A DNA stretch of 64,000 bases from Bacteroidales bacterium (GCA_049654165.1 JBASHR010000069.1:64513-128512); one strand, 5' to 3'; shown: positions 7,601-56,527, numbered from the stretch's first letter. Notes: generated by a model not told the origin, from the letters alone. Made by a program: numbers and translations.

Positions 7601-7660
7601 GCCAAAAATACTTATACGAATTGTATTTACAAAATAATCTAAACTGTTTTGCCAACCGGT
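7601..7660 (-). repeat. Dispersed ~50-nt intergenic repeat, copy 1 (inverted orientation)
   Basis: The reverse complement reads accggttggcaaaacagtttagattattttgtaaatacaattcgtataagtat. This matches the copies at 13892, 27983, 53432 and 56468. Confidence 0.7.
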
Positions 7661-13883: not shown

Positions 13884-13891
13884 TGCCGTTT

Positions 13892-13943
13892 AAACCATCG
13901 GCAAAACAGTTTGGACTATTTTGTAAATGCAAATCGTATAATA
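13892..13943 (+). repeat. Dispersed ~50-nt intergenic repeat, copy 2
   Basis: The sequence is aaaccatcggcaaaacagtttggactattttgtaaatgcaaatcgtataata, in a convergent intergenic region. Confidence 0.7.
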
Positions 13944-16147: not shown

Positions 16148-16187
16148 GGTGTTTCTTATTATGAATTATTTATTAATTATTTGTTTG

Positions 16188-18905
16188 TTAAAATCTTACA
16201 GCAACGTTAAGGAAATAATTAGTTCCTATCATATAGAAATAGCGGGGAGGAAATTTATCAACATCCTTTTCCTGAAAATCAAATCTTAATTGTTCATATC
16301 CTCCGGTACTGATTTTTTTATTGTTTAGTAAATTATTGGCGCTAAGATTAAGCTGCAAAAAGTATTTTCGTTTGATCCTGAATGATTTGCCCACCGAAAC
16401 ATCAACGGTATAACCACCGGAAAGAGTTTCCTGACGGGTAATTTTTGCAATTCTTGGGTCACCTTCTCCCAGATTCTCAATAGCACCCTGACTTCTGCGC
16501 TCTGGATTAAAGCTCAGATAAATATCATCAAAATAATTAACACTTGCATTAACAAAAAGGTATTTGGGTCCAACCCATTTAATGCCGAGTGCAGCCGCTG
16601 TTTGTGGTGTTCCGAAAACAAAAAAGTTCCTAAGATAAGCAAGTTCTGTTGTATCAGGGCGCGACCCATTGTCAAAGGCAACAGTGGCAAGAGGGCGGTT
16701 TGTATAACGGTAATTACCAATATTTACGGCAGCCTGTAGCCACAGATCATAAAACATATATGCTTCGCCTCCGAACTCAATACCCTGATGTGTGGTATTA
16801 ATACCATACATAATATGATTGACCAGAGTACGGTAATCGTCATGATAAAAGCTAAGTATCTGATTCTGATCTTTAAACTCGGTATGATAGGCTGTCAATC
16901 TGGCTTTTACCAATGGAGCACGGAAATGCAGGCTTGCTTCAGAGCTGAATATCTTTTCACTCACCAGTTTCGGAGAAACATCATGCCTGGTTCGGGGTGA
17001 AACAAAAGCATTACGCATGAACGGAGCCTGGGTCATATAAGCCATATTTCCTTCAAGGAAAAGCCTTCCGGTGAATTTATATGTAGCACCGCCTTTAAAG
17101 GCATAGTCAATAAAATTATATTTATGCGATTCCCCAAGCGATTTATCAGGATGACGGCCATTGCGCATAAATCCTTCGCGCCAGAATGTTGTGGAAGAGA
17201 GCTGTGCTGCAAGGAAGAAATCTATCTTTCGGTATGAGAATAAACTACTGAGCCATAATTTCCCAACCTGCTGCTTTAGTTTGTAATCGTAACCAAATAT
17301 ATCACCTTCTTTAACTATACGGTTTGGATTGTCAAGGTCGTTCTGGATTATGGTATCATTACCAATAAAATCCCTCTCGGCAAACTGGTCAATATCAGTC
17401 CAGAATTCGCCACCAAGCAGGTCGTCAATTGTTTTAAAATAGCTTACCGTATAACTTGAAAGCTCCACACCCTTGTTGATGGTAATATTTTCGTTTACCC
17501 TGTGATTTACAACTGTGTTCAAATTAAGATTCGACATGTCGTTTCTACGGTCTTCAATGATATACCGTGCCTGTTTACCTTCCATACGCGAAAGATAATT
17601 AGCCTGATACAGGGCATCCCAGTTTATCTGACTAACTGCACTGCTGTTTCTCCAGGTTTCAGCAACTGCATTTTTCACTATCGTATCAGCGAACCAGCTT
17701 GGCAGCTTTCTGTAGTAGTCCGGGCGGGGATCGGCTGAGTTATACCAGTTTAAAGCAGTAGTCCCGGTTTTGCCAAACATATATGACACAGTAGTGGTAA
17801 TATCGGTATTGCTGTTGTATTTCCAGTAATGGTTCAGAATCATAACCGGTTGATTCATAGTCCTGACCCTTGAGTTCCGTACTTCTCCGTTTTGAAATCC
17901 CCAGTTTGGGCTATAATGGTTGGTTCCGAGCAGATCATAAATCTCCTGTACCGAACCACCCTGCATACCTCGTTTGACAGGTGCGGCAAAGGCAGTGAAT
18001 TCAAGAGAGTGTTTGTCGTTAAACTTTTTTTCTAGACCCAGATAATAAGCCCATGCATCATAAAATGTTCCCCTGATATATCCCTCGTTACCCCAACGCC
18101 TTGATCCACTGACTGTTACAGCCCAATTATTGTTCATCAAACCTGTGGAGTGAATGAACATAAGCCGGTGAGTATAACTTCTGTTTGACACTGAATAGGT
18201 AAATTTGGTTTGAACACGCTGGCGCGAAGGACGTGTAATAATATTTGAAACCCCACCAATGCTCCCAAAGGAATAAGTTGTGGGCTCCAGACCATTAGTA
18301 TAAACACTGTTACGGGTAGCATCGTTAAGCCCACCCCATATTGCCCACAATGTACGGCCTGTTTCAGCATCGTTTATCATTGAGTTCCCAACATAGGTAG
18401 GTGTAAACTCAGCATCATATCCACGGTTTCGGAACCATGCCTGCCCAAAGGTATATGACGCAAAAGAAAGAAAGACATCGCCTGTGGAATGAAGCAGACC
18501 TGAAATATTCTGTGCCTTGGCATCGTCGTCCATATCAATCATTTCAAGATTGATTTCAGGGATTTTTTCAGTTTCGGTAAGATCCGCTATCAGAAAAACA
18601 TCATCAAGCCGGGTTTGAGTTTTTACTTCAATGTCTAACGTCCTGGTTATAAACCCAGCTCCTGAGAACACGATTTCAGCAGAGCCGAGCCTCAAACCTG
18701 ATATTGTGAATCTCCCTTCATGATCGGTTATTACCTGCTGCCCCTCAATGCTTACAATAATTGAAGGTAATGGTTGCCGGATCTGAGATTCCAGCACCCT
18801 CCCTGTAACTGAACCAGGTTGCCGGTCATCAGGTGATAAGGGTTGAGCGTATATGACATAAAATGGCAACAATGCCATCAGAAAAAACAATAGCTTTTTA
18901 TTCAT
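16188..18905 (-). CDS. TonB-dependent outer-membrane receptor with an N-terminal carboxypeptidase-regulatory-like domain
   Basis: It has a signal peptide and a CarboxypepD_reg-like N-terminus ('GSVTGRVLES...PLPSIIVSIEG'). It is 905 aa with a beta-barrel-type C-terminus ending in '...NVAVRF'. Confidence 0.85.
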   Translation of the reverse strand: MNKKLLFFLMALLPFYVIYAQPLSPDDRQPGSVTGRVLESQIRQPLPSIIVSIEGQQVITDHEGRFTISGLRLGSAEIVFSGAGFITRTLDIEVKTQTRLDDVFLIADLTETEKIPEINLEMIDMDDDAKAQNISGLLHSTGDVFLSFASYTFGQAWFRNRGYDAEFTPTYVGNSMINDAETGRTLWAIWGGLNDATRNSVYTNGLEPTTYSFGSIGGVSNIITRPSRQRVQTKFTYSVSNRSYTHRLMFIHSTGLMNNNWAVTVSGSRRWGNEGYIRGTFYDAWAYYLGLEKKFNDKHSLEFTAFAAPVKRGMQGGSVQEIYDLLGTNHYSPNWGFQNGEVRNSRVRTMNQPVMILNHYWKYNSNTDITTTVSYMFGKTGTTALNWYNSADPRPDYYRKLPSWFADTIVKNAVAETWRNSSAVSQINWDALYQANYLSRMEGKQARYIIEDRRNDMSNLNLNTVVNHRVNENITINKGVELSSYTVSYFKTIDDLLGGEFWTDIDQFAERDFIGNDTIIQNDLDNPNRIVKEGDIFGYDYKLKQQVGKLWLSSLFSYRKIDFFLAAQLSSTTFWREGFMRNGRHPDKSLGESHKYNFIDYAFKGGATYKFTGRLFLEGNMAYMTQAPFMRNAFVSPRTRHDVSPKLVSEKIFSSEASLHFRAPLVKARLTAYHTEFKDQNQILSFYHDDYRTLVNHIMYGINTTHQGIEFGGEAYMFYDLWLQAAVNIGNYRYTNRPLATVAFDNGSRPDTTELAYLRNFFVFGTPQTAAALGIKWVGPKYLFVNASVNYFDDIYLSFNPERRSQGAIENLGEGDPRIAKITRQETLSGGYTVDVSVGKSFRIKRKYFLQLNLSANNLLNNKKISTGGYEQLRFDFQEKDVDKFPPRYFYMIGTNYFLNVAVRF

Positions 18906-19091
18906 GATATATAGAAGTGAATTAATTGCAAAGTAAGACAGAAATAATAATTTGTATTTGAACTATTATCAGTTGCGGAATTTCAGCACAAAATAAAGCA
19001 AAATTTCAAAATCAAGCATTACATACAGTTTTTTAATTGCTGCATCATTATCAAATTGAAGTATAATGTCGCAGCCCTAACTGAAAAACAA

Positions 19092-19099
19092 TATCTTTG
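19092..19099 (+). promoter_or_regulatory. Bacteroidota -7 promoter box (TAnnTTTG)
   Basis: TATCTTTG lies in the divergent region between the receptor operon and the EEP nuclease gene, 34 nt upstream of the ATG at 19133. Confidence 0.4.
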
Positions 19100-19132
19100 C
19101 TCATCCATAGTTTTATGAAAAAGCACATTGAT

Positions 19133-20182
19133 ATGAAAAAAGTAATCTTTTTATTGTTAATCGGTTTATTAATAGTCTTTGTAACATATACCCAAACATC
19201 TAAACCTCAGGAGAAAAGAGCCACAGTTGCCTGTATAGCTTTTTATAATATTGAGAATCTTTTCGATACAATTGACAGCCCCGACACTTTTGATACTGAA
19301 TACACCCCTCAGGGCAGTAAAAAATGGGATAGCGCAAAATATTGGGAAAAAATTTCAAACATTGCCAGAGTCATCAGTGATATAGGAACAGATATGACAC
19401 CTGACGGACCTGCAATAATCGGATTGGCAGAAGTTGAGAACCGTTCTGTTCTGGAAGATCTGGTCAATGATCCACAAATCCGAAACCGTAATTATCAGAT
19501 AGTTCATTACGATTCTCCTGATCGCAGGGGAGTAGATGTGGCGCTGTTGTATCAGCCAAAATATTTTAATCTGTTGTCAAGCAAACCCTATCTATTTATC
19601 CCTGAGGGCAGAACGAATTTCTACTCCCGCGACGTGTTACTGGTTAGTGGTTTGTTTCACGGTGAATTGATGCATGTACTTGTAAATCACTGGCCATCAC
19701 GTGTTGGTGGTGAACGTAAATCACGCCCGCTGCGTAATTCTGCTGCTCAATTAAACCGTAAGATCATTGATTCACTTATGGTTGCAAATCCTGAAGCCCA
19801 CATTCTGCTTATGGGCGACTTAAATGATGATCCGGTAAACGAAAGCGTAAAAGTACATCTGAAAGCCGGATGGAAAAAAGATAAACTCAAGCCCGGTGAA
19901 CTTTATAATCCGCTTTATGAATTCTATCAGAAAGGAATCGGTTCACTTGCATACCGCGACTCATGGAACCTGTTTGATATGATTATTATGAACCAGACAT
20001 TATTATCGAAAAAAGAAAATACTTATCAGTTCCTAAGAGCCGGAGTTTTTAATAAACGATATTTATTACAAACCGAAGGACAATATTCCGGATATCCGCT
20101 ACGCACTCATGTAGGCGACAATTACATGGGTGGCTTCAGCGACCATTTTCCAACATTTATCTATGTTGTAAGAGAAAAGTAA
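19133..20182 (+). CDS. Secreted endonuclease/exonuclease/phosphatase (EEP) family protein
   Basis: The signal peptide is 'MKKVIFLLLIGLLIV'. EEP-like blocks include 'FYNIENLFD', 'GLAEVEN', 'LMGDLND' and 'SDHFP'. The starts at 19097 and 19115 are less likely given the promoter box at 19092. Confidence 0.8.
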   Translation: MKKVIFLLLIGLLIVFVTYTQTSKPQEKRATVACIAFYNIENLFDTIDSPDTFDTEYTPQGSKKWDSAKYWEKISNIARVISDIGTDMTPDGPAIIGLAEVENRSVLEDLVNDPQIRNRNYQIVHYDSPDRRGVDVALLYQPKYFNLLSSKPYLFIPEGRTNFYSRDVLLVSGLFHGELMHVLVNHWPSRVGGERKSRPLRNSAAQLNRKIIDSLMVANPEAHILLMGDLNDDPVNESVKVHLKAGWKKDKLKPGELYNPLYEFYQKGIGSLAYRDSWNLFDMIIMNQTLLSKKENTYQFLRAGVFNKRYLLQTEGQYSGYPLRTHVGDNYMGGFSDHFPTFIYVVREK

Positions 20183-20247
20183 TCCTTTTTAACCTATATA
20201 TTTAAAACTGACATGGGAAACCGGGAAGTATAAACCGGCAGCTTAGC

Positions 20248-20353
20248 AAAAGGACAGTTGACCTTTTACACAGCCCGATTGATCGTTTGGTAGATAAAAA
20301 AACAGAAATAAATAAAATCGGTAAAAAGTTATAACTTTGTACGGGTATTTATT
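20248..20353 (+). repeat. Repeated promoter-bearing module, copy A (51-nt conserved 5' block + TAACTTTG core)
   Basis: aaaggacagttgaccttttacacaGcccGattgatcgtttggTagataaaa, then an A/T spacer, then ataactttgtAcgggtatttatt. The 5' block matches copy B at 48 of 51 positions. Confidence 0.85.
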
Positions 20354-20399
20354 TGTGCAAGTATTTATAAGTTATGGGGTATAGTGAAAACAGAAATCT

Positions 20400-21215
20400 A
20401 TGACATTACATGAAGCAATAAAAAAGGTTTTAAAGGAAAATGGAAGGCCTTTAAAGCCAATTGAAATAGCATCAATCCTGAATGATAGCAAAATCTATCA
20501 AAAAGGTGATAAGAGTAGAATTAAATCATCTCAGATTTCAGCTCGAGTAAATAAGTATCCATCATGTTTCTTCAAAGAAAATGGGTTAATCTATTTGAAT
20601 AATTGGGACTCATCATTAAAAAAAACAAATGAAATTATGCCAAAACATACTATAAAAATAAGAGTTGATTCGAAAGTTACTGATGGAGATATTGAAGAAA
20701 AACTTTTAGCAGCAGGAAACTTTCGACAATATAATGACTTAGATTCCATAACTTTATCTAAAAATGGTTTTTATTGTTTGAGACTTAAGGAAAACTCAAA
20801 ACTACCAGATAGATACCAGCTGATTCTAGATAAACGTAAGTTTAAATATTTATACATTGGAAAAGCTGAAGGACAAAATCTCGGAGAGAGATTAGACCAA
20901 GAAATTGAACATAAAGGTCCAGGAACTTTTTTTAGAAGTATCGGTTGTGTATTAGAATATTTGCCAATTAAAGGTCATTTAAAAGGACATTCAAATCAAA
21001 ATAATTACAAGTTTTCAACTACAGACACAGCGGAAATTGTGGAATGGTTAATTTCTAATATTGAAATTAGCATTGTTGAGTACAACAGTAGCTTTGAAAT
21101 TGAGAAAGAATTTATCAATAAGTATTGTCCCTTATTGAATTATACTCATAACCCAATGAAATTGCAAGAATTGAAAGAAGATAAAGACAATTGTCGAAAA
21201 ATTGCAAGAGGATAA
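20400..21215 (+). CDS. HARE-HTH domain / GIY-YIG-like nuclease fusion protein
   Basis: The N-terminus 'TLHEAIKKVLKENGRPLKPIEIASIL' is HARE-HTH-like. The C-terminus has the GIY-YIG pattern 'GFYCL...YLYIGKA...LGERL...EKEFINKYCPLLN'. Confidence 0.6.
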   Translation: MTLHEAIKKVLKENGRPLKPIEIASILNDSKIYQKGDKSRIKSSQISARVNKYPSCFFKENGLIYLNNWDSSLKKTNEIMPKHTIKIRVDSKVTDGDIEEKLLAAGNFRQYNDLDSITLSKNGFYCLRLKENSKLPDRYQLILDKRKFKYLYIGKAEGQNLGERLDQEIEHKGPGTFFRSIGCVLEYLPIKGHLKGHSNQNNYKFSTTDTAEIVEWLISNIEISIVEYNSSFEIEKEFINKYCPLLNYTHNPMKLQELKEDKDNCRKIARG

Positions 21216-21449
21216 AGAAATACATGTGATAACAAAGTGTAGTAACAATAAGGGTTTCAAAGGTAAATTAAGCCTCCTATATTACTCAAACTTCGATGGT
21301 GGTTAACAATTTTGCAGCCCGTAATCCCTTTCTTTTGCTACACTCAACCGTAACAATCAAGCCTAAAAAAAACAGCGACATAATGAAAATTGACAAGAAA
21401 AAATATAAAGACAGAACAAAAAGCCAAATCAAACGAAATCCGACAACAT

Positions 21450-21480
21450 TTTGTTGATCGGAAAAAATATACTACTTTTG
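21450..21480 (+). promoter_or_regulatory. Candidate Bacteroidota promoter (-33 TTTG, 19-nt spacer, -7 TACTTTTG)
   Basis: TTTG is at 21450-21453 and TACTTTTG at 21473-21480. This would give a leader of about 270 nt in front of the ATG at 21755. Confidence 0.5.
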
Positions 21481-21568
21481 ATTTTGAATTAATTAAAACG
21501 AATTTTATGACATAAGAAACCTTAATTTAAAAATATAGAAGCGTTAGCTTTTATTCTGAGATTAGAAA

Positions 21569-21702
21569 ACTACCACTTTTCAAACGCATCAGGAATAACA
21601 AGTGAAACGCTCACGCCATGGCGTGGGCTTAACTTATTTGATGCGTGGGTGCGTGGTAGTACCTCTGATCTGAATATAGTTACAGACCCACGCTTCTTTT
21701 TT
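21569..21702 (+). promoter_or_regulatory. GC-rich structured leader element with an intrinsic terminator (candidate riboregulator/attenuator or small RNA)
   Basis: Nested helices: ACTACCAC (21569-76) with GTGGTAGT (21653-60), and ACGCATCA (21584-91) with TGATGCGT (21639-46). A central hairpin spans 21609-21628 (CACGCCATGGCGTG core). A competing helix pairs GCGTGGGT (21643-50) with ACCCACGC (21686-93), followed by TTCTTTTTT. Confidence 0.5.
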
Positions 21703-21754
21703 ATACTAACCGTCATAGTTGGGTCTGATGTGGCAATCTAAAAACACAATTTTT

Positions 21755-22474
21755 ATGTTTAGCAAATCATTTTTTAAGACAGCCCTTATTGCGGGGCTAA
21801 CGGTGGCAATGGCACAAGGTGCATTTGCACAAAAAACTGCTGATGAGTTAAAAGCAGAAAGAGAAGTATTAAAGTCAGAAATGAACTCAAAAGAAGCAAA
21901 AAAATTAGAGAAAGTTCTCGAAAAAATTGCACCTATTGGTGGCACAATGGCAGATTTTGTAACAACAGTGTTAAATCCTTCATTAGCATCAGTTCCAGAA
22001 ATTCAAAGGAAAGCTGTTCCTTCGGTTGCAAAACTCGTTGGTAATGAACCTGCCAGAATCGTAAATAAACCTGCTGCAACAAGGCTTAACTCTGTTGATG
22101 GGCTTGTAGATGCAGGCACAACATTGCTTGGTGTTGTAGTTTCAACCAATGCCGTGTTGTCAAAGTACAAAATCGCGATCACTGAAAGTAAAGATGGCGA
22201 AGTTGATATTACACAATACAAAGCAAATTTGGACGATTACATTGCTATTCTTCCAATGCTGGTGCAAGCAGACATTGATGCTACAAAAGCAGTTGAAAAA
22301 ATCAAATATGCTCAAGCCGATCTCAAAGGATTGAATCCTATACAGGCAGCTCCAACTATTAAAGCGTCTAATTGGGCTATTGACGCAGTAAATGTCAGTG
22401 TGTGGAAAATTGCAGAAAACACCAAATTACTGCAGAATCTTATCAACAGTATTAAAGTAGCAGGTAATTTGTAA
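21755..22474 (+). CDS. Exported all-helical protein of unknown function (operon gene 1)
   Basis: The signal peptide 'MFSKSFFKTALIAGLTVAMAQGAFAQ' is followed by a coiled, Lys/Glu-rich N-terminus and the central hydrophobic segment 'GTTLLGVVVSTNAVL'. I trimmed the start from the track's 21719. Confidence 0.6.
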   Translation: MFSKSFFKTALIAGLTVAMAQGAFAQKTADELKAEREVLKSEMNSKEAKKLEKVLEKIAPIGGTMADFVTTVLNPSLASVPEIQRKAVPSVAKLVGNEPARIVNKPAATRLNSVDGLVDAGTTLLGVVVSTNAVLSKYKIAITESKDGEVDITQYKANLDDYIAILPMLVQADIDATKAVEKIKYAQADLKGLNPIQAAPTIKASNWAIDAVNVSVWKIAENTKLLQNLINSIKVAGNL

Positions 22475-22475
22475 T

Positions 22476-23294
22476 ATGTTGATTATGAAAAGATCTACAG
22501 TAATCATATTATTGCTTATGGTTAGTCTTTACGGTTGCCCGCAAGCTGATAGTAAACCAGTAATTGTAGTTAATAGATTTTCTTCAGAAGTGGATAATCC
22601 AAGTTTTACAACTTCTGTTCAGGAAAAAGTTTCTCAAATTGTTGTAAATTCAAAACGTTTTACGGTTAGGATGAGTGATGAAGAAGCAAAAGACGAAGTT
22701 GAAACAAGGAAATCTGAAATTTACCTTGATAATAGTGAGAATCTTGCCGATTTGAAATTGTCGGCATATCAATTCCGTATTATCGGACATTTGATAAAAG
22801 CGAATATCTACAGAATGAAAAACCCTGATGGAAGCGTAAACGGATTTAAAGCAAGTTGTGCTTTTACGCTGAAAGTCAATGATGTGGAAAGAGGGCAAAC
22901 TACTGAAGCTGAAAGTTTTCAAACCGAAGTCAGTCCGTTGGCGGCATCAAAAGAACAGGCAATAAACCAAGCATTGCAATCTATAGAGCCAAAATTGAAG
23001 TCTTATTTTATAAAAACTTTTCCATTAACAACAAAAATTGTAAAGTTTTTGGATAATAAAAAATGTTTGATTTCAGGCGGAAAAAGTTTTGGGTTCAGAG
23101 AGGGCGATAAATTGATGGTTGAACGTATTGAAATGCTTAACGGAAAGCCCTATCCTATCGAAATAGGCGAATTGAAAATTATAAAAATTGCAGGCGATGA
23201 CTTTTCAGAATGCAGTGTTTCAAAAGGTAGTAAAGAAATTTTGGCAGCATTTAACACAGCTGAAAAGTTGAATTGTAAATTAATTGTAAAATAG
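22476..23294 (+). CDS. Lipoprotein of unknown function with a CsgG/LpoB-like N-terminal pattern and an SH3-like C-terminus (operon gene 2)
   Basis: It has the lipobox 'SLYGC'. 'KPVIVVNRFSSEV...VNSKRFTVR' resembles the first strand-helix-strand of CsgG/LpoB-type lipoproteins. An alternative start is at 22488. Confidence 0.6.
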   Translation: MLIMKRSTVIILLLMVSLYGCPQADSKPVIVVNRFSSEVDNPSFTTSVQEKVSQIVVNSKRFTVRMSDEEAKDEVETRKSEIYLDNSENLADLKLSAYQFRIIGHLIKANIYRMKNPDGSVNGFKASCAFTLKVNDVERGQTTEAESFQTEVSPLAASKEQAINQALQSIEPKLKSYFIKTFPLTTKIVKFLDNKKCLISGGKSFGFREGDKLMVERIEMLNGKPYPIEIGELKIIKIAGDDFSECSVSKGSKEILAAFNTAEKLNCKLIVK

Positions 23295-23300
23295 TTAAAT

Positions 23301-23762
23301 ATGAAACAATTAGTAAAATTATTTTTAGTCGGAGTTTCCATTATTTTGTTTGTAAATTCTTGTCGAACAATTTATCCTTCAGCTGAAGTCAATTATTTGT
23401 CGGGCGATGAGCAAACGCTTACCGTTCGTTCCGTAGGGGTTGACATTGATAAAGAAAAAGCAATTATCAATGCTGAACAAAAAGTGTTTGATGTTCTGTT
23501 CTTTAGAGGCTTACCCGAATCAAAACAAAAAATACCGTTAATCAGCAGCAACGAGCATGAAGAAATATCAAATCACAAGAATTATTTTGATAGTTTTTAC
23601 GATGGAAAACGACATAAAACATTTGTAATGTCGTCAATTCCTGTAAGTAACGTAAAAGCTAGGGGTAGACAAAAAATAGTTACGCTCGACGTAAAAGTTA
23701 ATTTGTCGGCACTGCGGCACGATTTGGAAACCTTCGGGGTTATCAGAAAATTTGGTTATTAA
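23301..23762 (+). CDS. Small lipoprotein of unknown function (operon gene 3)
   Basis: It has the lipobox 'FVNSC' and is 153 aa. Confidence 0.6.
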   Translation: MKQLVKLFLVGVSIILFVNSCRTIYPSAEVNYLSGDEQTLTVRSVGVDIDKEKAIINAEQKVFDVLFFRGLPESKQKIPLISSNEHEEISNHKNYFDSFYDGKRHKTFVMSSIPVSNVKARGRQKIVTLDVKVNLSALRHDLETFGVIRKFGY

Positions 23763-23783
23763 CCCAATAAATAGAGGAAATTT

Positions 23784-24674
23784 ATGAGAAAAATACAAAT
23801 AGTAACATTTTTATTGCTTGCGGTAGGTTCTGTTCTCGGACAAAACGTAGCCACAAACAGCGATGGACAAGTTGTAACTGTTCAGCCCAAAATAATGGTC
23901 ATTCCATTTACTAAAGAAAGAGAAGATATCAGGACAATTTTGGAGGAGGATGTTAACCGAAGAATTGCAATTGCTAAAATAAAAGAAGGTTTTGACAGTC
24001 GAGGTTTCACAACCGTTGATTTTGTTGCCAGACTCAAAATTGCAAAAGACAATAATGTTTTCACTTCCGATAATCAGACGGATATTAAAACGCAAATTGT
24101 AGAAATGTCGGGAGCTGATGTGTACGTACAATCCGAAGTAATTATAGAAAAAGGTCAATCGGGTAATTCGGTAAAGCTGATTCTTGCTGCCTATGAAATT
24201 TCTACAGGTAATTCGCTGTCGAACAAAGTAGGCGAAAGCGGACGTTTTTACACAGACGATTTCAATAAGTTGGCATCAAAAGCTGTAGAAAGCTGCATAG
24301 AGGATTTTTTGAACATCATGCAAACGAAATTTACGGACATTGTGAATAACGGAAAATCTATTTTGATTGACATCAGCTTCGATCCTTCTTCGTTGTTTAC
24401 GATGTCGTCGGAAGTTGGAAGTGATGGTTTACCGCTTTCCGACCAAATAGAAATGTGGATGAGCGAAAATGCTCTTAAAGGGAATTATCATATTCAGGGA
24501 ACTACGAATTTAAAAATGTTGTTCGATGATGTGCGTATTCCGCTCAAAGACAGCAATGGAAATAATTATAATCCCAATAAATTCGGACTAGAAATGTATA
24601 AATTCTTCAGAACGTTAGGAATTTCAATAGGCAGAGACATTAAAGGCAATACTATTTATATAACAATAAAATAG
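23784..24674 (+). CDS. Exported protein of unknown function (operon gene 4)
   Basis: It has a signal peptide ('LLLAVGSVLGQ'), and 'PKIMVIPFTKE' directly follows the mature N-terminus. It may belong to a Bacteroidota-only DUF family (unverified). Confidence 0.6.
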   Translation: MRKIQIVTFLLLAVGSVLGQNVATNSDGQVVTVQPKIMVIPFTKEREDIRTILEEDVNRRIAIAKIKEGFDSRGFTTVDFVARLKIAKDNNVFTSDNQTDIKTQIVEMSGADVYVQSEVIIEKGQSGNSVKLILAAYEISTGNSLSNKVGESGRFYTDDFNKLASKAVESCIEDFLNIMQTKFTDIVNNGKSILIDISFDPSSLFTMSSEVGSDGLPLSDQIEMWMSENALKGNYHIQGTTNLKMLFDDVRIPLKDSNGNNYNPNKFGLEMYKFFRTLGISIGRDIKGNTIYITIK

Positions 24675-24681
24675 AGACAAC

Positions 24682-25626
24682 ATGAAAACAATTTATTTTA
24701 TAGTAATCGCAATGATTTTGGCTTCTACTTCAGTTGCCCAATCAATAAGCGATTTGGGAAAAATTACCCTATCGGTTGTAATGCCTGAAAATGTTGATGG
24801 TTTGGATATTTCGCAACTTTCTAAACTGGAGACTAAAATCTCTCAAATTGTTACCGTATCTGGTTTAGCAGCATCAGGTTATAATAATAATTTTGTCATT
24901 TACCCCAAGTTTGCAATTTATGAAAATAATATAGTTGAAGGAGGTATGCAAAAAATTACTGTTTTTACAGCAGAATTAAGTTTGTTCATTAAACAAGTTG
25001 AAAATAATTTATTATTCTCTACAATTAGTAAACAACTCAAAGGAAGTGGAAGCAATAAAGAACAGGCAATTACAAACGCTATCTCTAAAATTCCAATAAA
25101 CGATACCGAATTTAAAATCTTTATTGAAACAGGAAAATCTGAAATTATCCGGTACTATGAAACAAAGTGCGAGGACATTATTAAAAAATCTGACAGTTAC
25201 GTTAAAATGCAGCAGTATGACCAAGCATTGGGATTATTAATGACTGTTCCTGAAGAAGTATCAAGTTGCTACAATCAGATTCAGGGTAAAGCAATTGAGG
25301 CATATAAAGCTTATCAAACACAAAAATGTGCCGAGTTAATTCAAAAAGCAAAGACCACGCTTGCTGGTAATGATTATGCTGGGGCATTAAACATTTTATC
25401 AGATATTGATCCTTCCGCTTCGTGCTTCAATGAAGCACAAGCATTAGCAAAAACAGCCGAAACAAAAGTTGATGCCGAAGAAAAAAAACAATGGGATTTT
25501 CAGATGAAACAGTATAGTGATGCTGTTAGTCTGGAAAAACAGCGTATTAATGCAATAAAAGAAATAGCGGTTTCTTATTACAAAAGTCAACCTACGACAG
25601 TCAATTATAATTATATCATAAGGTAG
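24682..25626 (+). CDS. Exported protein of unknown function with a Cys-containing helical-repeat C-terminus (operon gene 5)
   Basis: The signal peptide is 'IAMILASTSVAQS'. 'ITLSVVMPENV' starts the mature part. The C-terminal half is helical and TPR-like, with five Cys residues. Confidence 0.6.
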   Translation: MKTIYFIVIAMILASTSVAQSISDLGKITLSVVMPENVDGLDISQLSKLETKISQIVTVSGLAASGYNNNFVIYPKFAIYENNIVEGGMQKITVFTAELSLFIKQVENNLLFSTISKQLKGSGSNKEQAITNAISKIPINDTEFKIFIETGKSEIIRYYETKCEDIIKKSDSYVKMQQYDQALGLLMTVPEEVSSCYNQIQGKAIEAYKAYQTQKCAELIQKAKTTLAGNDYAGALNILSDIDPSASCFNEAQALAKTAETKVDAEEKKQWDFQMKQYSDAVSLEKQRINAIKEIAVSYYKSQPTTVNYNYIIR

Positions 25627-25731
25627 TTTCTCCCTTAAACATTTATGCTATTTTTGTCCAAAACACAGAATATTTGCATTGTGAAAACTTTTTGACAACA
25701 TATTATCATACATATTATAAAAATTAAAACG

Positions 25732-25832
25732 AAAGGACAGTTGACCTTTTACACATCCCTATTGATCGTTTGGCAGATAAAATTAAAAAGACAAAACCAA
25801 CAAAAATTGATAACTTTGTTCGGGTATTTATT
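25732..25832 (+). repeat. Repeated promoter-bearing module, copy B
   Basis: aaaggacagttgaccttttacacaTcccTattgatcgtttggCagataaaa, then a spacer, then ataactttgtTcgggtatttatt. Confidence 0.85.
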
Positions 25833-25873
25833 GGTTACTGGTCAGGTTACTGCAAACTCTAAAACACAAGATA

Positions 25874-26089
25874 ATGGCAAAATACACTTTTACCCAATCG
25901 CAGTTTGACGAAATTAGCAACTTGTTAAAAATACGAAAATATCAAAGTCGGGACGAACAAAAATCTACCCAAACTAAAATCAGAAGAAAAGGTTTTAAGA
26001 TTTCAGACCATTTTACCGGGTTTAGCGATATTGACTTTAAAAAACTTTTAGACAGAGGCGAAATTGTAATTATAGACAATCCCATATAA
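25874..26089 (+). CDS. Small basic protein of unknown function (71 aa), first gene of a three-gene cassette
   Basis: The ORF starts 55 nt downstream of the TAACTTTG box. It is Lys/Arg-rich in the centre ('KSTQTKIRRKGFKISD'). Confidence 0.45.
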   Translation: MAKYTFTQSQFDEISNLLKIRKYQSRDEQKSTQTKIRRKGFKISDHFTGFSDIDFKKLLDRGEIVIIDNPI

Positions 26090-26110
26090 TAATATTTTAA
26101 AAACAGATTT

Positions 26111-26605
26111 ATGAACTTCAAAGACATTGAACAAATTAAGAAAGCAGGTTTTACAGGCTTCAAGACAATGAAAGAATTGTTTGCAGACAGTTCAGCTATT
26201 CCAAAAATCAAAGGCGTTTATTTGGTTCTCAACCCGACAAAAAAAGGCGGGTTCTTGACTGTTGGAACAGGCGGTCACTTTAAAGGGAAAAATCCAAATG
26301 TTTCAGTTTCGGAACTTGAAGCAAATTGGGTAGATGACACGATTGTAGTTTACATCGGCAAAGCAGGGAAAGACGGTAGTAGTGCGACACTTCAATCACG
26401 CTTGCGACAGTATTTTGGTTTCGGACAAGGTAAAAATGTAGGACATTGGGGTGGCAGATTTATTTGGCAACTTAAAAATTCAGCAGATCTTGTAGTTTGT
26501 TGGAAAGCATTACCGACAACCGACCCAAGAACAGTTGAAGCCGACCTAATTCAAGACTTCGTTTCAAAATTTTCTCAGCGACCATTCGCAAATTTAGCTA
26601 ACTAA
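26111..26605 (+). CDS. GIY-YIG-like nuclease domain protein
   Basis: It shows the GIY-YIG fold pattern: 'KGVYLV' (GIY), 'VVYIGKA' (YIG), 'LQSRLRQY' (Arg helix) and 'EADLIQDF...PFAN' (Glu/Asn). Confidence 0.6.
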   Translation: MNFKDIEQIKKAGFTGFKTMKELFADSSAIPKIKGVYLVLNPTKKGGFLTVGTGGHFKGKNPNVSVSELEANWVDDTIVVYIGKAGKDGSSATLQSRLRQYFGFGQGKNVGHWGGRFIWQLKNSADLVVCWKALPTTDPRTVEADLIQDFVSKFSQRPFANLAN

Positions 26606-27294
26606 TGAACCCACGACAATTTGAAGAATTAGTTTGTGAGTATTTTCGCAAACAAGGTTACGAGGCCAAAACAACTTCATACAGTGGCGACTATGGTATT
26701 GACGTTTTCGCAACAAAAGGAAAAGAGAAAATAGCAGTTCAAGTAAATATGTATGGCGATTCAACAAGAAAAATAAATCGTCAAATGGTAATGGAATTGT
26801 ACGGAGCAAAAGATTATTTTGATTGCACCAAAGCAATTATCGCAACTGACGGAGCATTTTTGCCCGATGCAATTTCTGTTGCAGAGAAATTGAAAATTGA
26901 AATTTTGTATTTCAACGAATTTCAAACACAACTTCCACAAAATCAATCACTAAAAAGCCGCAAGACAGATAAAACTTTTGAACAAATTTGGGAAGACTAC
27001 ATAATTCCACTTCAAGGAAAAACACTAACGAGAAGTAACGGTAAAACAAATAAAATAATCAAGGTAGATTGGAGTGGAATTGAACGGCTGACATCAAACG
27101 GTAATAAAGGAAAAATCAAAATTGAAATATTCAAACAAGCCGTAAACAAACTTTTAACTAATGGTTCAATTAGCCGTGATTACATCAATCAAAACTACGT
27201 CGGACGAGCATCTTCGGGAATTGTGCTAATTTTATCACAAGTTCCGTTCTTTACACTAACTGACAGACCAACAGGATTGAAATATGAAATGTAA
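26605..27294 (+). CDS. Mrr-like (PD-(D/E)xK) restriction endonuclease domain protein with an uncharacterised C-terminal domain
   Basis: 'FEELVCEYFRKQGY', 'GDYGIDVFA' and 'IAVQVNMY' match the Mrr_cat layout. The start ATG overlaps the upstream stop by 1 nt (TAATG). Confidence 0.65.
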   Translation: MNPRQFEELVCEYFRKQGYEAKTTSYSGDYGIDVFATKGKEKIAVQVNMYGDSTRKINRQMVMELYGAKDYFDCTKAIIATDGAFLPDAISVAEKLKIEILYFNEFQTQLPQNQSLKSRKTDKTFEQIWEDYIIPLQGKTLTRSNGKTNKIIKVDWSGIERLTSNGNKGKIKIEIFKQAVNKLLTNGSISRDYINQNYVGRASSGIVLILSQVPFFTLTDRPTGLKYEM

Positions 27295-27306
27295 CGATAA
27301 AAAGCT

Positions 27307-27329
27307 ATAACTTTGTGCGGGTATTTATT
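27307..27329 (+). repeat. Repeated promoter module, copy C (3' core only)
   Basis: ataactttgtGcgggtatttatt is identical to copies A and B except at one position. Confidence 0.8.
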
Positions 27330-27395: not shown

Positions 27396-27650
27396 ATGTC
27401 AGAAATTATTCGCAACAGGACAATCAGACCTTCAAGTAGGCTTGAAAGTTCAAAGAGTTACAAAATTGACACTAAAACCGTTTCGAGTGGCGACACTTTA
27501 ATTGTAAACATTGACCACGAATCAAAACCATTTAAGAAAACGTTCACATTCCGAGGTTCGGACGTTGCACATCTTAACAGTATTCACTTTAAGGTGCATG
27601 ATTTTGGAACTCATATTGAAATTTCTTGGAGTGGAGCAAAGCCAATCTGA
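27396..27650 (+). CDS. Hypothetical protein (84 aa)
   Basis: The ORF starts 81 nt downstream of the third TAACTTTG core. I recognise no motif. Confidence 0.4.
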   Translation: MSEIIRNRTIRPSSRLESSKSYKIDTKTVSSGDTLIVNIDHESKPFKKTFTFRGSDVAHLNSIHFKVHDFGTHIEISWSGAKPI

Positions 27651-27982
27651 ATAGCCGAAACATATTTGGTCAAGCAATTAGAACTTAAAGCACAGGTATT
27701 ATCAAAACCTACTGTTAAATCATTAATATTAGTCCACTCAAAAAAATCATTTGCGCCGTTGGCGAAAGACGATATTGAGATTTTAATCTTAGACACAATG
27801 CCTGGTGTATATTCCGAACTAAACTGCCCCCCCTATTCCGGTGATGCTGACCCCCATCATTCGATATCAGTTTTTTAGGGCTAATCTCAGTCTATAACAA
27901 AGAACAACGAGAGGATAAAATTATACCGATTGGAAAAATATAACAGACCAATTTTATCTCTGCTTGATTGTTCTATATATTT

Positions 27983-28025
27983 AAACCATCGGAATTGGCG
28001 ATTGTAAATACAAATCGTATAATAT
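27983..28025 (+). repeat. Dispersed intergenic repeat, copy 3 (shorter)
   Basis: aaaccatcggaattggcgattgtaaatacaaatcgtataatat. Confidence 0.6.
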
Positions 28026-28138
28026 GAGTGTTGTTTTATTGGCAATAAGCTATAAAATATCCCTTTTTTCAAAAAAGAGCGATTTTAATGAAACAAAATC
28101 ATTCAAAATTTCGTTCATATAATAAAATATATTATCAA

Positions 28139-28597
28139 ATGATAGAAGAAAAAGGAATAACAACAGACCATTATAAGAAATTCACTGAAATTCTCGGAAA
28201 GGAAAATATCCCTGTTGAAATTGAAAGCCCGTTCGATTTCATACATAATGCCAATGAAGGAATAAATGTAGGTGTGATATTGAATTTCAGCAGATATTTC
28301 AACCTGTCAAAAGAGCTTGTTGCTCAATTTCTGGATATTTCTGAACCGACTCTGTATCGTTGGTTTAAAGCGAACAAAAATTTAGAAAGGAATTTCTCGG
28401 TTAAGCTATTTGAAATTGTTGACCTGTTTATTTACGGTGAGGAAGTGTTTGGCGACCGTGATACTTTCTTCAAATGGTTGGGTCTGCCTAATCAAGCTAT
28501 GGGGGGCATGGAGCCAAAAGAGCTGATTGAGATACCCGGTGGTGTTTCAAAGATCAAAGACCTTTTGGGAAGAATTGAGCACGGTGTTTACAGTTAA
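28139..28597 (+). CDS. Xre-like antitoxin with a C-terminal DUF2384-type (MbcA/ParS) domain
   Basis: 'ISEPTLYRWFK' is HTH-like and 'FKWLGLPNQAMGGMEPKELIE...GVSKIKDLLGRIEHGVY' is the typical C-terminus. The ORF track starts at 28088. The gene lies directly upstream of a RES gene. Confidence 0.75.
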   Translation: MIEEKGITTDHYKKFTEILGKENIPVEIESPFDFIHNANEGINVGVILNFSRYFNLSKELVAQFLDISEPTLYRWFKANKNLERNFSVKLFEIVDLFIYGEEVFGDRDTFFKWLGLPNQAMGGMEPKELIEIPGGVSKIKDLLGRIEHGVYS

Positions 28598-28603
28598 TGA
28601 ATT

Positions 28604-29056
28604 ATGCTTGTTTACAGGATCACAGCAAGGAAATATGCAGGCGACCTGAGTGGCTATGGAGCAGCCATGTACGGCGGACGTTGGAATAAAAAAGGAATAC
28701 CGGTTCTTTATACAGGAGAAAATAAAGAAATAGCTCTTCTGGAGGTAATTGTAAACACCCCGCCATTGTTAATTCCGGAATTGGATATCCTTACTATTGA
28801 AATCTCAGATGATTCAATAACCACAATTGATATAGAGCAGTTGCCTAAAAACTGGAGTTCATATCCTGCTCCTGTTATTTTAACTGATATTGGAGAAAAC
28901 TGGATTAAGGAAGGCAAAACCATATCCCTTAAAGTGCCGAGCTGTATTATACATACCTCTCACAATTATATTTTAAATTGCAGGCATCCCGAATATTCAA
29001 GGGCTAAACTAATTGAGCGCAGGCATTTCAGGTTTGACCCGAGATTAAAAAAGTAA
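28604..29056 (+). CDS. RES domain toxin (NAD+-degrading RES family)
   Basis: 'YRITARKY...GGRWNKKGIPVLYTGENKEIALLE' carries the R-E-S signature. It is 150 aa and paired with the Xre/DUF2384 antitoxin. Confidence 0.8.
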   Translation: MLVYRITARKYAGDLSGYGAAMYGGRWNKKGIPVLYTGENKEIALLEVIVNTPPLLIPELDILTIEISDDSITTIDIEQLPKNWSSYPAPVILTDIGENWIKEGKTISLKVPSCIIHTSHNYILNCRHPEYSRAKLIERRHFRFDPRLKK

Positions 29057-29195: not shown

Positions 29196-30734
29196 TTACA
29201 AAGGTATATTCCCATGTTTTTTACCCGGCAAACTATCAACTTTATTTTGGGTCATTTCCAAAGCCTGAATAAGTTTACGGCGGGTCTGTCGGGGATAAAT
29301 GATCTCGTCAATATAACCAAGTTCAGCGGCTTTATATGGGTTTGCAAATGTTTCGCGATAATTTTCAACAGCTTTTTGTTTTTGCTCTTCATCAAGTTTC
29401 TCGCGATATAAAATATTAACAGCCCCATCAGGTCCCATTACCGCAATTTCGGCACCGGGAAATGCAAAATTCACATCAGCACCAATATGTTTACTCGACA
29501 TTACATCATATGCACCGCCATATGCTTTACGGGTGATCACAGTGATCTTGGGTACGGTAGCTTCAGCGAAAGCATATAATAATTTGGCTCCATGCTTTAT
29601 TATACCGCCAAATTCCTGAGCAGTGCCTGGAAGAAAACCGGGGACATCAACAAATGTTATCAATGGAATATTAAAAGCATCGCAAAACCGTACAAATCTT
29701 GCAGCCTTGATTGAAGAATTGATATCCAGAACCCCTGCCAGTACAGCAGGCTGATTAGCCACTATCCCCACCGGACGTCCGTCAAGACGGGCAAAACCAA
29801 CAACCATATTCTGTGCATAATGCGGCATTACCTCAAAAAAGTTGCCATCATCAATAACAGTATATATCAGTTCTTTCATATCGTAAGGCTTATTGGGGTC
29901 GGCAGGCACCAATGTCTGAAGCTTTTCATCTTCACGGTCAGGATCATCTGCACTTACCTGAACAGGAGGGTCTTCCATATTATTTGATGGCAAAAACCCC
30001 ATCAGCTCACGTATCATCATAAGACATTGCTCATCAGTAGGTGCAACAAAATGAGCGACACCACTTTTTGAGTTATGGGTCATAGCCCCGCCCAGTTCAT
30101 CCTTTGTAACTTCTTCGTGAGTAACTGTTTTAATCACATCAGGACCTGTCACAAACATATAGCTCGTGTCTTTCACCATAAAAATAAAGTCAGTTATTGC
30201 AGGTGAGTAAACAGCTCCGCCGGCACATGGCCCAAGAATAGCAGATATCTGAGGTATTACACCTGAGCTTCTCACATTGCGGTAAAAAATATCAGCATAG
30301 CCTGCCAAACTCTGAACTCCTTCCTGTATACGGGCACCTCCTGAATCGTTAAGCCCGATGACTGGAGCACCCATTTTCATGGCAAGATCCATGACTTTAA
30401 CAATTTTATCGGCATTGGCACGGCTTAAGGTACCGCCAAAAACTGTAAAATCCTGTGCGAAAACATATACCAGACGCCCATCTATTTTACCATAACCGCT
30501 TACTACACCATCGCCGGCAATTTTTTGCCTGTCCATACCAAATTCAGACGTCCGGTGAGTCATATATTTATCAAGCTCCACAAAACTACCCGGATCCAAT
30601 AAAATATCAATACGCTCACGGGCAGTCAGGCGGCCTGACTGATGCAGTTTTTCAATTCTTTCAGCACCACCTCCGAGCAAAGCTTCTTTTTCCTTGTTCT
30701 CAAAACGTTTGTAAATTTCGTCCTGTGTAATCAT
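29196..30734 (-). CDS. Acyl-CoA carboxylase beta subunit (propionyl-CoA carboxylase / methylmalonyl-CoA carboxyltransferase)
   Basis: It shows carboxyltransferase family similarity throughout, e.g. 'GKLTARERI'-like '[14 protein letters not shown]' and 'DVPGFLPG'. Confidence 0.9.
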
Positions 30735-43401: not shown

Positions 43402-43579
43402 ACGGGCTTTAGCCCGTTTCAATTTATTCTTCATTTGTTATTAAATCCCGTAAGTGTCTACGACACTACGGGATTTATGAGTGGCATAGAGTACCACACG
43501 TGTTATAAACATGCCATCCCGTAAGGGTCTTCAACCCTACGGGATTTGTAGACTCAGGCGCTGAAGCTCCCGAAGCGCC
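43402..43579. repeat. Cluster of REP-like hairpins in the giant-gene/mutS intergenic region
   Basis: ACGGGCTTTAGCCCGT is at 43402-17. There are two related hairpins: AAATCCCGTAAGTGTC-TAC-GACACTACGGGATTT (43443-76) and ATCCCGTAAGGGT-CTTCA-ACCCTACGGGAT (43516-45). GGCGCT...AGCGCC is at 43557-79. Confidence 0.7.
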
Positions 43580-43584
43580 TTATT

Positions 43585-43607
43585 AAAAAACCCCGCCGGG
43601 GTTTTTT
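43585..43607 (-). terminator. Intrinsic terminator of the giant T9SS cargo gene
   Basis: The minus strand reads AAAAAACCCCGGCGGGGTTTTTT, about 50 nt after the stop at 43654. Confidence 0.7.
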
Positions 43608-43653
43608 AACCTGCGGCGGGGTTTTTATTTAGTCAGTTTTGACTGACAAAGAA

Positions 43654-53123: not shown

Positions 53124-53431
53124 ATGAGAAGCAGCCTCTGTTTTTGTTATTCCTTGTGCCAGTTACCATATATTGTTGCATTACAGCCCCTTAACACAGC
53201 TTAGGCAAAATTCAAAATTGCAAAAAGCCATAAACTTTTAACATATATTTAACTTAATCGGCTGAATTCAAGACATTTCTGTAACGACAAAGCTCATTTT
53301 TTTTAAATTTTCTAAAAACTGGAACATAAGATTAGTTACCTGGTTAAAAAACAGTTAGCCAATCTGTGTAATTTCGATTGAAAAAGAATAATAAACCAAT
53401 TTTACCAGTTGGTAGCTTGTTCTATGTAGTT

Positions 53432-53482
53432 AAACCACCGGCAAATCAATTTGGACTATTTTGTAAAAACAAATCGTATAAA
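53432..53482 (+). repeat. Dispersed ~50-nt intergenic repeat, copy 4
   Basis: aaaccaccggcaaatcaatttggactattttgtaaaaacaaatcgtataaa. Confidence 0.7.
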
Positions 53483-56467: not shown

Positions 56468-56527
56468 CGATTGTAAATTTACAAAATATTTTGAACTATT
56501 TTGTAGATAAAAATCGTGTTTTATAAA
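56468..56527 (+). repeat. Dispersed intergenic repeat, copy 5 (divergent)
   Basis: cgattgtaaatttacaaaatattttgaactattttgtagataaaaatcgtgttttataa lies in a convergent intergenic region. Confidence 0.5.

Follow-up and report, generated by a model that had tools for sequence, protein, structure and literature searches.

In this study we describe a short non-coding repeat module in a 64,000-nucleotide (nt) stretch of DNA from a Bacteroidales bacterium (GCA_049654165.1, JBASHR010000069.1:64513-128512), where copies of the module precede several gene units between positions 20,248 and 27,329. The whole stretch is called the window below, and positions are counted from its first letter. It is a piece of Bacteroidales chromosome with ordinary core genes, among them those for PBP2, RodA, PriA, MutS, Ffh, TyrRS and RNase E/G. 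At ~20.2-29.1 kb a block of co-oriented genes lies between two convergent core genes, which encode an Exo_endo_phos_3 protein (+ strand) and an acyl-CoA carboxyltransferase (- strand). The part that varies between strains, here called the islet, covers ~20.22-28.09 kb; all of its genes are on the + strand and have 71-314 codons (Table 1). Pfam scans of all large open reading frames (ORFs) of the window revealed no recombinase or transposase, the annotations beside related loci list none either, and the window contains no tRNA or tmRNA gene as a target site. In one related contig (L048, Exo_endo_phos_3 78% identical) the two flanking genes are 186 nt apart and the gap contains neither the module nor the Xre-RES pair that closes the inserted region in the window; we regard this as the empty site. 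A 13-nt AT-rich direct repeat, CTATATATTTAAA, is found near the ends of the variable region (20194-20206 and 27973-27985; matched in 2 of 300 shuffles). As an att site or target duplication it was rejected, since it does not enclose the Xre-RES pair, which the empty site also lacks.

Table 1. Features of the variable islet and its borders (window coordinates).
Feature	Position	Strand	Remarks
Left flank, Exo_endo_phos_3 gene	19133-20182	+	PF19580, 9e-130; beside the module in all alleles
Left edge of exchanged islet, CCGG...CCGG hairpin-like stretch	20221-20248	+	Just past the last lineage-specific difference of the flank, 20220
Block copy A, islet head	20249-20299	+	At the islet head in every allele seen
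Spacer A	20300-20330	+	Travels with cassette A; in L026 precedes the A-like cassette without a block
Core copy A	20331-20353	+	Putative sigma-ABfr -7 box TAACTTTG at 20332-20339
Tandem partial second copy of core 3' half (TTTGTGCAAGTATTTATAAGTTA)	20352-20374	+	From alignment; within cassette A
Cassette A, HARE-HTH + GIY_YIG_2, 271 aa	20400-21215	+	Pfam 6e-29 and 1e-5
Lipoprotein operon, five genes including DUF6175	21755-25626	+	No module copy; own TACTTTTG box at 21473
Block copy B, sole internal block copy	25732-25782	+	Identical in all strains with A, lipoprotein operon and B
Spacer B	25783-25809	+	Travels with cassette B; directly after the head block in L026 and L035
Core copy B	25810-25832	+	-7 box at 25811-25818
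Cassette B: 71-aa ORF, 164-aa GIY-YIG-like ORF, 229-aa Mrr_cat nuclease	25874-27294	+	Mrr_cat 2.5e-22
Core copy C (27307-27329) with 12 nt like the end of spacer A	27295-27329	+	-7 box at 27308-27315; begins 1 nt past the Mrr stop
Cassette C, 84-aa ORF, no assigned function	27396-27650	+	In L032/L038-type strains 198-aa and 213-aa genes take its place
Conserved right arm of the islet	27800-28087	+	Carries a generic promoter-like element, 28001-28022
Xre-like antitoxin and RES toxin pair	28088-29056	+	Closes the inserted region on the right; not present at the empty site
Right flank, acyl-CoA carboxyltransferase gene	29196-30734	-	Close to Exo_endo_phos_3 in L048

The repeat module and its putative promoter

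The module consists of a block of 51 nt, an A-rich spacer and a core of 23 nt (ATAACTTTGTNCGGGTATTTATT). The window contains two copies of the block (ATTGATCGTTTGGNAGATAAAA), which differ at three positions, and three copies of the core, all on the + strand. A fourth core copy was not found with up to three mismatches when both strands were searched, and shuffling leads one to expect no copy of either element (100 shuffles for the core). These results agree with a preliminary description of the sequence, which had noted three cores and two nearly identical blocks and had placed modules A and B as direct repeats about 5.5 kb apart. The spacing from start to start is 5483 nt, and block A begins one nucleotide later than stated there. 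Across copies the block is 94-100% identical, while the spacers (31 nt in A and 27 nt in B) can be aligned in composition alone. Conservation of the core extends past its 23 nt, to TTATT(A/G)GTT(A/G). Alignment of the internal copies shows a constant 3' junction and variable 5' ends: copy B starts with the block, the internal copy of a related contig, L026, at the start of spacer A, and copy C 12 nt before the core. These ragged 5' ends fall on A-rich microhomology (GATAAAAA, TAAAAAG). A decayed block ahead of core C, within the 3' part of the Mrr gene, was considered and rejected, the best local alignment being 7 nt long and matched in 223 of 500 shuffles. The inverted-repeat search found neither inverted copies of block or core nor terminal inverted repeats in the window. 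An invertible promoter or shufflon was rejected, as inverted repeats are not suitably placed. No RNA fold of the block or of the three leaders beats shuffled sequence (z-scores 0.04 to 1.4), and no Rfam family matches in the window.

All three core copies of the window carry TAACTTTG, a form of TAnnTTTG, which is the -7 consensus of the primary sigma factor of Bacteroidota (PMC7366714). The box ends 60 (A), 55 (B) and 80 (C) nt before an ATG. In eight distinct module copies the six fixed positions T-A-n-n-T-T-T-G are invariant, and the three substitutions that occur (TAAG, TAAA, TAGC) are all at the two n positions, a pattern with a chance probability of ~0.016. The bases 3' of the box are less constant than the box itself (L001 GGAGTTTT, L026b GGGTACTT). 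Among the 51 genes of the comparison, 15 have TAnnTTTG within 120 nt upstream, ~4-fold more than the 6.9% expected. The -7 box behaves as though it were selected, and the module may well have promoter activity, as judged from these sequence patterns. Sigma-70 promoter and intrinsic terminator scans are uninformative for this phylum.

It might be possible that the copies are kept for shared regulation instead, with the block and/or the transcribed bases binding one regulator, for example the neighbouring protein of Xre type or one encoded by a cassette, and the three units forming a small regulon; the recombination pattern described below would then be a by-product. Conservation of the core reaches past the -7 box even where the leaders are otherwise unrelated, the block is kept while the spacers are not, and the module is not generic, all of which would suit a binding site. 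In copy A the box even sits in a perfect 14-bp palindrome, AAAGTTATAACTTT, with extended arms that match at 16 of 20 positions. However, this palindrome is not retained in copies B, C, L001 and L026b, variation is greater in the bases after the box than within it, and core C has no block. Moreover, cassettes A and B encode unrelated N-terminal DNA-binding domains, so that no single cassette-encoded autoregulator fits. Co-regulation of the three units, as proposed in the preliminary description, is compatible with the data, which speak neither for nor against it, but we consider a common regulator a rather unlikely explanation of the module.

The module appears to be specific for this locus. 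When 185,579 species genomes (one each) were scanned with a degenerate core, 13 matches were obtained, about the number expected by chance. Two of the 13 have the context of the module; both are Bacteroidales metagenome-assembled genomes (MAGs) with one copy each, directly downstream of Exo_endo_phos_3. The scan of JGI metagenomes gave 11 matches; four of these are real, and each of the four lies at this locus. A viral origin of the block was rejected, its sole match in viral contigs being a 22-nt coincidence in a coding region. Viral contigs, plasmids and phages contain no relatives of the GIY_YIG_2 protein, and islet DNA was not found in plasmids or phages beyond two short patches. According to the preliminary description, the shared-regulator idea would fail if the module were a generic, genome-wide element; in both the genome and the metagenome scans the core occurs here only.

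A generic promoter-like repeat does exist in the window. Its sequence, TTTGTAAATNCAAATCGTATAA, is found at 7612-7633 (-), 13920-13941, 28001-28022 and 53460-53481 (+), within a conserved stretch of ~52 nt that has a TTGnnn-17-TATAAT look (longer versions at 13890-13941, 53430-53481 and 56470-56521). It precedes unrelated genes, such as a NUDIX gene, Xre and ffh, at 4-5 unrelated sites. Two copies lie between convergent genes with no protein gene after them and may drive small RNAs. In some strains an insertion sequence (IS) with a DDE_Tnp_1_4 transposase sits inside this element, just upstream of the Xre-RES pair (L038 11290-11712, which corresponds to window ~28002). At that point contigs L004 and L005 stop, and several short contigs break exactly there.

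Such a repeat, and the 82 occurrences of TAnnTTTG in the window, could suggest that the module is nothing but a chance likeness of ordinary Bacteroidales promoters or a generic repeat resembling repetitive extragenic palindromes (REPs) or miniature inverted-repeat transposable elements (MITEs). Both readings are excluded by the shuffles, which predict none of the three cores and neither block, and by the scans, which return this locus only; the lack of terminal inverted repeats likewise speaks against them.

Alternative alleles and mosaic divergence

The islet occurs in several alternative alleles. In L001 the flank is 98-99% identical to that of the window, and a single diverged module leads into a 195-aa DUF7255-like gene. 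In L014 and L022 the module is followed by a 151-aa gene and a Fib_succ_major lipoprotein gene. L035 consists of the flank, block, spacer B, core B, cassette B, core C and the 84-aa ORF and is without exactly the 20.3-25.8 kb interval. This interval is also missing at the head of L026, where cassette B comes first and is followed by spacer A, a core variant with no block and a gene whose HARE-HTH domain is that of cassette A but whose nuclease domain differs. L032, L038 and their relatives share the window arrangement up to 27303, continue with 198-aa and 213-aa genes that have no core, and carry a truncated cassette A. The window-type arrangement itself was independently assembled in many samples. 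Look-ups with the Mrr, Xre and RES proteins gave no further alleles. In L038, L040-L043 and L045 the HARE-HTH/GIY-YIG gene is called as 192 aa, its N-terminal part being disrupted, and the -7 box reads TAGCTTTG, with the array otherwise intact; this suggests that cassette A is decaying in the L038-type lineage. In the short-read assemblies of two samples, contig ends that overlap by ~28 nt fall just past module A (L007/L046 at 20379-20407) and just inside the right arm (L006/L002 at 27924-27952). Coexistence of islet alleles within single samples would fit these breaks.

Four breakpoints recur among the alleles: the block/spacer junction (directly after AGATAAAA), the 3' end of the core, a point past the Mrr stop (directly after TAACGATAAAAA, 27303) and ~27800. 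The first of them is used in both L026 and L035. Three distinct continuations begin at ~27303, and the homology of L001 and L038 with the window restarts at ~27800-27808, behind three different last genes. From there the right arm diverges between strains more than the adjacent genes do. The idea of the preliminary description that the module is a cassette boundary is supported by the different cargo behind the same head (L001, L014/L022) and by the breakpoints at the module. Its further suggestion, deletion or amplification of the intervening 5.5 kb between the direct repeats, is likewise supported by comparison of the alleles: natural variants without exactly this interval exist (L035 and L026), and L026 has the order B then A-like, but the single-nucleotide polymorphisms (SNPs) of the block are unlike those of a simple RecA deletion. 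In both L035 and L026 a block of the G-G-T type is joined to spacer B. A RecA crossover between copies A and B of the window would have to fall in the last 8 nt of the block, so that this join is rarely expected; hence the two alleles are probably not direct deletion derivatives of the window arrangement. More likely, to judge from their block types, they represent an older arrangement that later received cassette A, the lipoprotein operon and a second block copy.

Divergence along the locus is mosaic. Between lineages the Exo_endo_phos_3 flank differs by ~6%, while the islet is nearly identical. Compared with L037/L039 the window has 82 mismatches in 19000-20220 (6.7%) and 2 in 20221-25970, followed by ~2.4% divergence in cassette B and ~11% at 27800-28200. 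In L035 an 8% divergent flank goes with cassettes B and C that match the window at 99.7-100% identity; in L001 the flank is 98-99.4% identical, the cargo is unrelated and the module is 89.5% identical. Cassette A and the lipoprotein operon form one segment that is 99.9-100% identical across lineages. The left end of this tract lies 28 nt before the block (20220/20221), and that of the B and C tract common to the window and L035 between the last block SNP (25774) and spacer B. The module is the only stretch of perfect identity common to different alleles, although kilobases of ~94% identical flank are also on offer. That both tracts end at the module despite this flank is the strongest evidence for the module as a recombination boundary. 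The content of the islet is uncoupled from the core genome.

The explanation that we favour, with a probability of somewhat more than one half (about 0.56), is that a promoter-bearing head has been reused and doubles as the recombination boundary of a recombinase-free cassette islet. This islet would have been inserted between the Exo_endo_phos_3 and acyl-CoA carboxyltransferase genes in one uncultured Bacteroidales lineage and would carry mostly nuclease genes of type IV restriction character. The core, that is the TAnnTTTG box and the next ~15-20 nt, would serve as a sigma-ABfr promoter and start region before successive units. Internal copies (block, spacer and core in B, the core in C, spacer and core in L026) would stem from tandem stacking of cassettes that each brought part of the head, and the ragged 5' ends at A-rich microhomology fit the stacking of such fragments. 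Copies of perfect identity in ~6% divergent DNA, chiefly the head block, would offer the homology for import of cassettes from other lineages and for their loss and re-ordering. Homologous recombination is the mechanism we infer, and no dedicated recombinase would be needed.

A number of points weigh against this explanation. All comparison sequences are metagenome or MAG contigs. The scans covered representative species genomes and JGI metagenomes, with the window's own complete genome outside them, and the block was scanned in viral contigs only, which limits the claim of specificity. Over the whole window TAnnTTTG occurs at chance rate (82 observed versus 82 expected). A TTTG -33 element is absent at the usual distance of ~20 nt, the nearest one being in the block, 42 (A) or 38 (B) nt upstream of the box; this element is frequently undetectable (PMC7366714). 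The core does not head every unit of the islet: the lipoprotein operon has none, and the 198/213-aa genes of L038-type arrays have none either. For the identical tract of cassette A and lipoprotein operon, the right end is only bracketed, at 21146-25970, and not fixed at module B. The block was duplicated in one historical event only, so that a function of its own is not required. Finally, five unrelated downstream sequences join the core at one constant 3' junction, which homologous recombination alone does not explain.

Because of this last point we keep a site-specific model at low probability. According to it a site-specific recombinase encoded elsewhere in the genome would use the core or the block/spacer junction for attachment, and the islet would be an array similar to integrons or to the clusters of rAID-1 (recombinase-associated acquired interbacterial defence). 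Cassettes A, B and C and the unrelated cargo of L001 and L014 do begin at the same point after TTATT(A/G)GTT, the junction after AGATAAAA recurs in L026 and L035, and cassette A contains a tandem partial duplication of the core. In addition, the repetitive intergenic sequences of rAID-1 have been likened to integrons (bioRxiv 10.1101/471110). On the other hand, neither a tyrosine or serine recombinase nor a transposase is present in the 64 kb or beside related loci, no element is common to the cassette 3' ends, and there is no inverted-repeat architecture. The ragged 5' ends resemble non-specific joining, and the scans detected the core at no other locus. A promoter-embedded recombination site, served by a recombinase in trans or by a cassette nuclease and forming a minimal analogue of an integron, thus seems improbable to us. 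If it were true, each captured cassette would automatically receive a promoter.

Cargo of the cassettes

The units that the preliminary description had placed downstream of the module copies were largely recovered: Pfam and ORF analysis confirms the HARE-HTH/GIY-YIG gene, the Mrr nuclease and the 84-aa ORF, but the GIY-YIG label of the 164-aa ORF in cassette B is not established. This protein has no significant Pfam match (GIY_YIG_2 at E=0.19), and a sequence search of the PDB found no match. A profile-profile comparison gave 76% probability (E 2e-5) over the GxY...YIGxA...R core, and membership in the GIY-YIG group is plausible on the basis of this alignment. The proteins of the cassettes are modular. 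Residues 72-271 of the cassette A protein are 77% identical to P0133-type proteins from other Bacteroidales, which have a different N-terminal domain of 70 aa. In cassette B this type of domain is a separate ORF, the 71-aa ORF, a homologue of the P0133 domain (35%, E 6e-9). The 164-aa ORF is related to the C-terminus of the A-like protein of L026 and to the 213-aa protein of L038. Domains are shuffled in combinatorial fashion in this nuclease family (window 20400-21215 and 25874-26605; L026 37-859 (-); L038 10435-11076; P0122-P0136): one of two unrelated N-terminal domains, HARE-HTH or the 70-aa type, is combined with a GIY_YIG_2 or a 164-aa type domain, and all four combinations are seen.

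One modular family might also mean plain paralogy: a single ancestral nuclease gene, copied along with its promoter, would have given rise to cassettes A and B, and the repeats would be leftovers with no role in recombination. The homologue P0133 carries the string TTGTGAGTATTTATGAGTTA 25 nt before its ATG, comparable to the second core copy of cassette A, 26 nt before the ATG. Yet this likeness is weak (12 of 300 shuffles, p ~0.04) and absent upstream of P0123, a second homologue. The core also stands before unrelated genes (the 84-aa ORF, the 195-aa DUF7255-like gene of L001 and the 151-aa gene of L014), and the exchange tracts stop at the module. Above all, the non-coding copies are 94-100% identical, whereas the proteins cannot be aligned or share ~30% identity, a contrast that descent by itself does not produce. 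Paralogy accounts for part of the similarity of A and B, but we doubt that it explains the module.

Homing would be another route, with the GIY-YIG nucleases of the cassettes cutting cassette-free alleles at or near the core and repair copying the cassette in, in the manner of free-standing homing endonuclease genes. Several cassettes indeed encode GIY-YIG-type nucleases with DNA-binding N-terminal domains, and cassettes have spread between lineages at near 100% identity. However, the 84-aa, 195-aa and 151-aa cassettes have no such nuclease, and many strains retain the array with a truncated A gene. Furthermore, characterised fusions of HARE-HTH or winged-helix (wH) domains with GIY-YIG are modification-dependent restriction enzymes and not homing enzymes. 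We therefore regard homing as very unlikely and retain the reused head as the preferred explanation.

Fusions of wH and GIY-YIG domains have been characterised as type IV, that is modification-dependent, restriction enzymes, and Mrr-type enzymes are likewise modification-dependent (PMC11037411). The Pfam domains of the islet proteins comprise this type IV architecture (HARE-HTH/wH with GIY-YIG, and Mrr_cat), from which such an activity is predicted. Among defence-system models, those of PADLOC gave domain-level matches only, to Mrr-like nuclease parts, and those of NCBIfam none. The type IV-like nucleases together with the Xre-RES pair make a predicted defence role likely, and the islet cargo is probably anti-phage.

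Some further features of the window may be mentioned. The conserved neighbourhood to the left of the islet (14030-20182) encodes an outer-membrane protein of CarboxypepD_reg type (905 aa) and a 705-aa protein with DUF5689, DUF6359 and DUF5017 beside the Exo_endo_phos_3 nuclease, which is secreted, and in L049 a gene with Endonuclease_1 and Por_Secre_tail domains is added to a neighbourhood of this type. It may be a locus for the utilisation of extracellular nucleic acids beside the islet. Between cassette A and the lipoprotein operon lies a non-coding stretch of 540 nt (21216-21754), in which the TACTTTTG box (21473) and, at ~21612-21625, the palindrome CACGCCATGGCGTG are found. This stretch may represent a structured leader or what is left of another unit. 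Outside the islet, hairpins are found at 43445-43547 and 43585-43625: two copies of one with a perfect stem of 32 nt (ATCCCGTAAG...CTACGGGATTT), located 71 nt apart, are followed by two G+C-rich terminator-like hairpins, all of them between mutS and the 3' end of a giant gene. The latter is an ORF of 2631 aa (43654-51549, -) with internal repeats of 270-300 nt that are 62-79% identical (families D1, D2, D6 and D7) and presumably encodes a repetitive surface protein.

Relation to known systems and biological meaning

The closest parallels to the islet are found among known forms of genome plasticity. In the minimal mobile elements (MMEs) of Neisseria (Saunders & Snyder 2002; Snyder et al. 2007; definition as in PMC3082526) conserved genes flank alternative whole-gene cassettes, as they do here in the window, L001, L022, L026, L035 and L038. 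As in MMEs, there are no mobility genes and the content is uncoupled from the core phylogeny. Exchange of MMEs is credited to homologous recombination, and the mosaic divergence with sharp tract ends fits recombination here as well, as far as sequence can tell. Unlike MMEs, the cassettes of the islet are stacked in tandem, each keeping a copy of the promoter head, and the exchange tracts end in this head rather than in the flanking genes. Furthermore, the host is an uncultured member of the Bacteroidales.

The rAID-1 clusters (bioRxiv 10.1101/471110; PMC12247911) belong to gut Bacteroidales, the same order, and share with the islet the co-oriented short genes, the signs of horizontal transfer and the conflict-related cargo. 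They have conserved intergenic motifs; in the islet a conserved core precedes three of four units and not the genes of L038-type arrays. A defining feature of rAID-1 is a conserved, adjacent XerD-like tyrosine recombinase at the head of the array, and none is present within the 64 kb around the islet. The cargo of rAID-1, also a defining feature, consists of orphan immunity genes; that of the islet (HARE-HTH/GIY_YIG_2, Mrr_cat, DUF7255-like proteins and small ORFs) has no match to an immunity family. The islet is also tiny, with 3-4 units, and confined to one lineage.

With integrons the islet has in common cassettes of one orientation at a conserved head that supplies a promoter. However, intI is absent from the 64-kb window and from the annotated related flanks, and the inverted-repeat search found no attC at the 3' ends of the cassettes. 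Integron cassettes are promoterless and depend on one promoter, Pc, whereas the islet repeats a putative promoter before A, B and C; upstream of the lipoprotein operon the sequence differs. Defence islands and hotspots likewise combine such cargo, here Mrr-type and winged-helix/GIY-YIG nucleases beside Xre-RES, at a strain-variable site between core genes. Unlike them, the islet has no integrase, tRNA or mobile-element backbone, and a conserved non-coding head is repeated inside it. REPs, MITEs and IS ends occur in many dispersed copies, in contrast to the module, with one copy per representative genome and always at this locus.

In conclusion, the islet is a local example of known genome plasticity and not a new system; what it adds to the MME type is the tandem stacking and the repeated promoter head. 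The phenomenon is confined to one lineage, and no long-standing question is opened by it. If the reading of a reused head is right, a short non-coding sequence would have two jobs, providing expression for any gene that lands behind it and a patch of identity for transfer. Since the head is conserved, it might be usable as bait for new cargo genes. If true, defence-type cassettes would cross between lineages that are ~6% apart in their core genes without any mobile-element machinery, which bears on how the defence repertoire turns over in uncultured anaerobic Bacteroidales.

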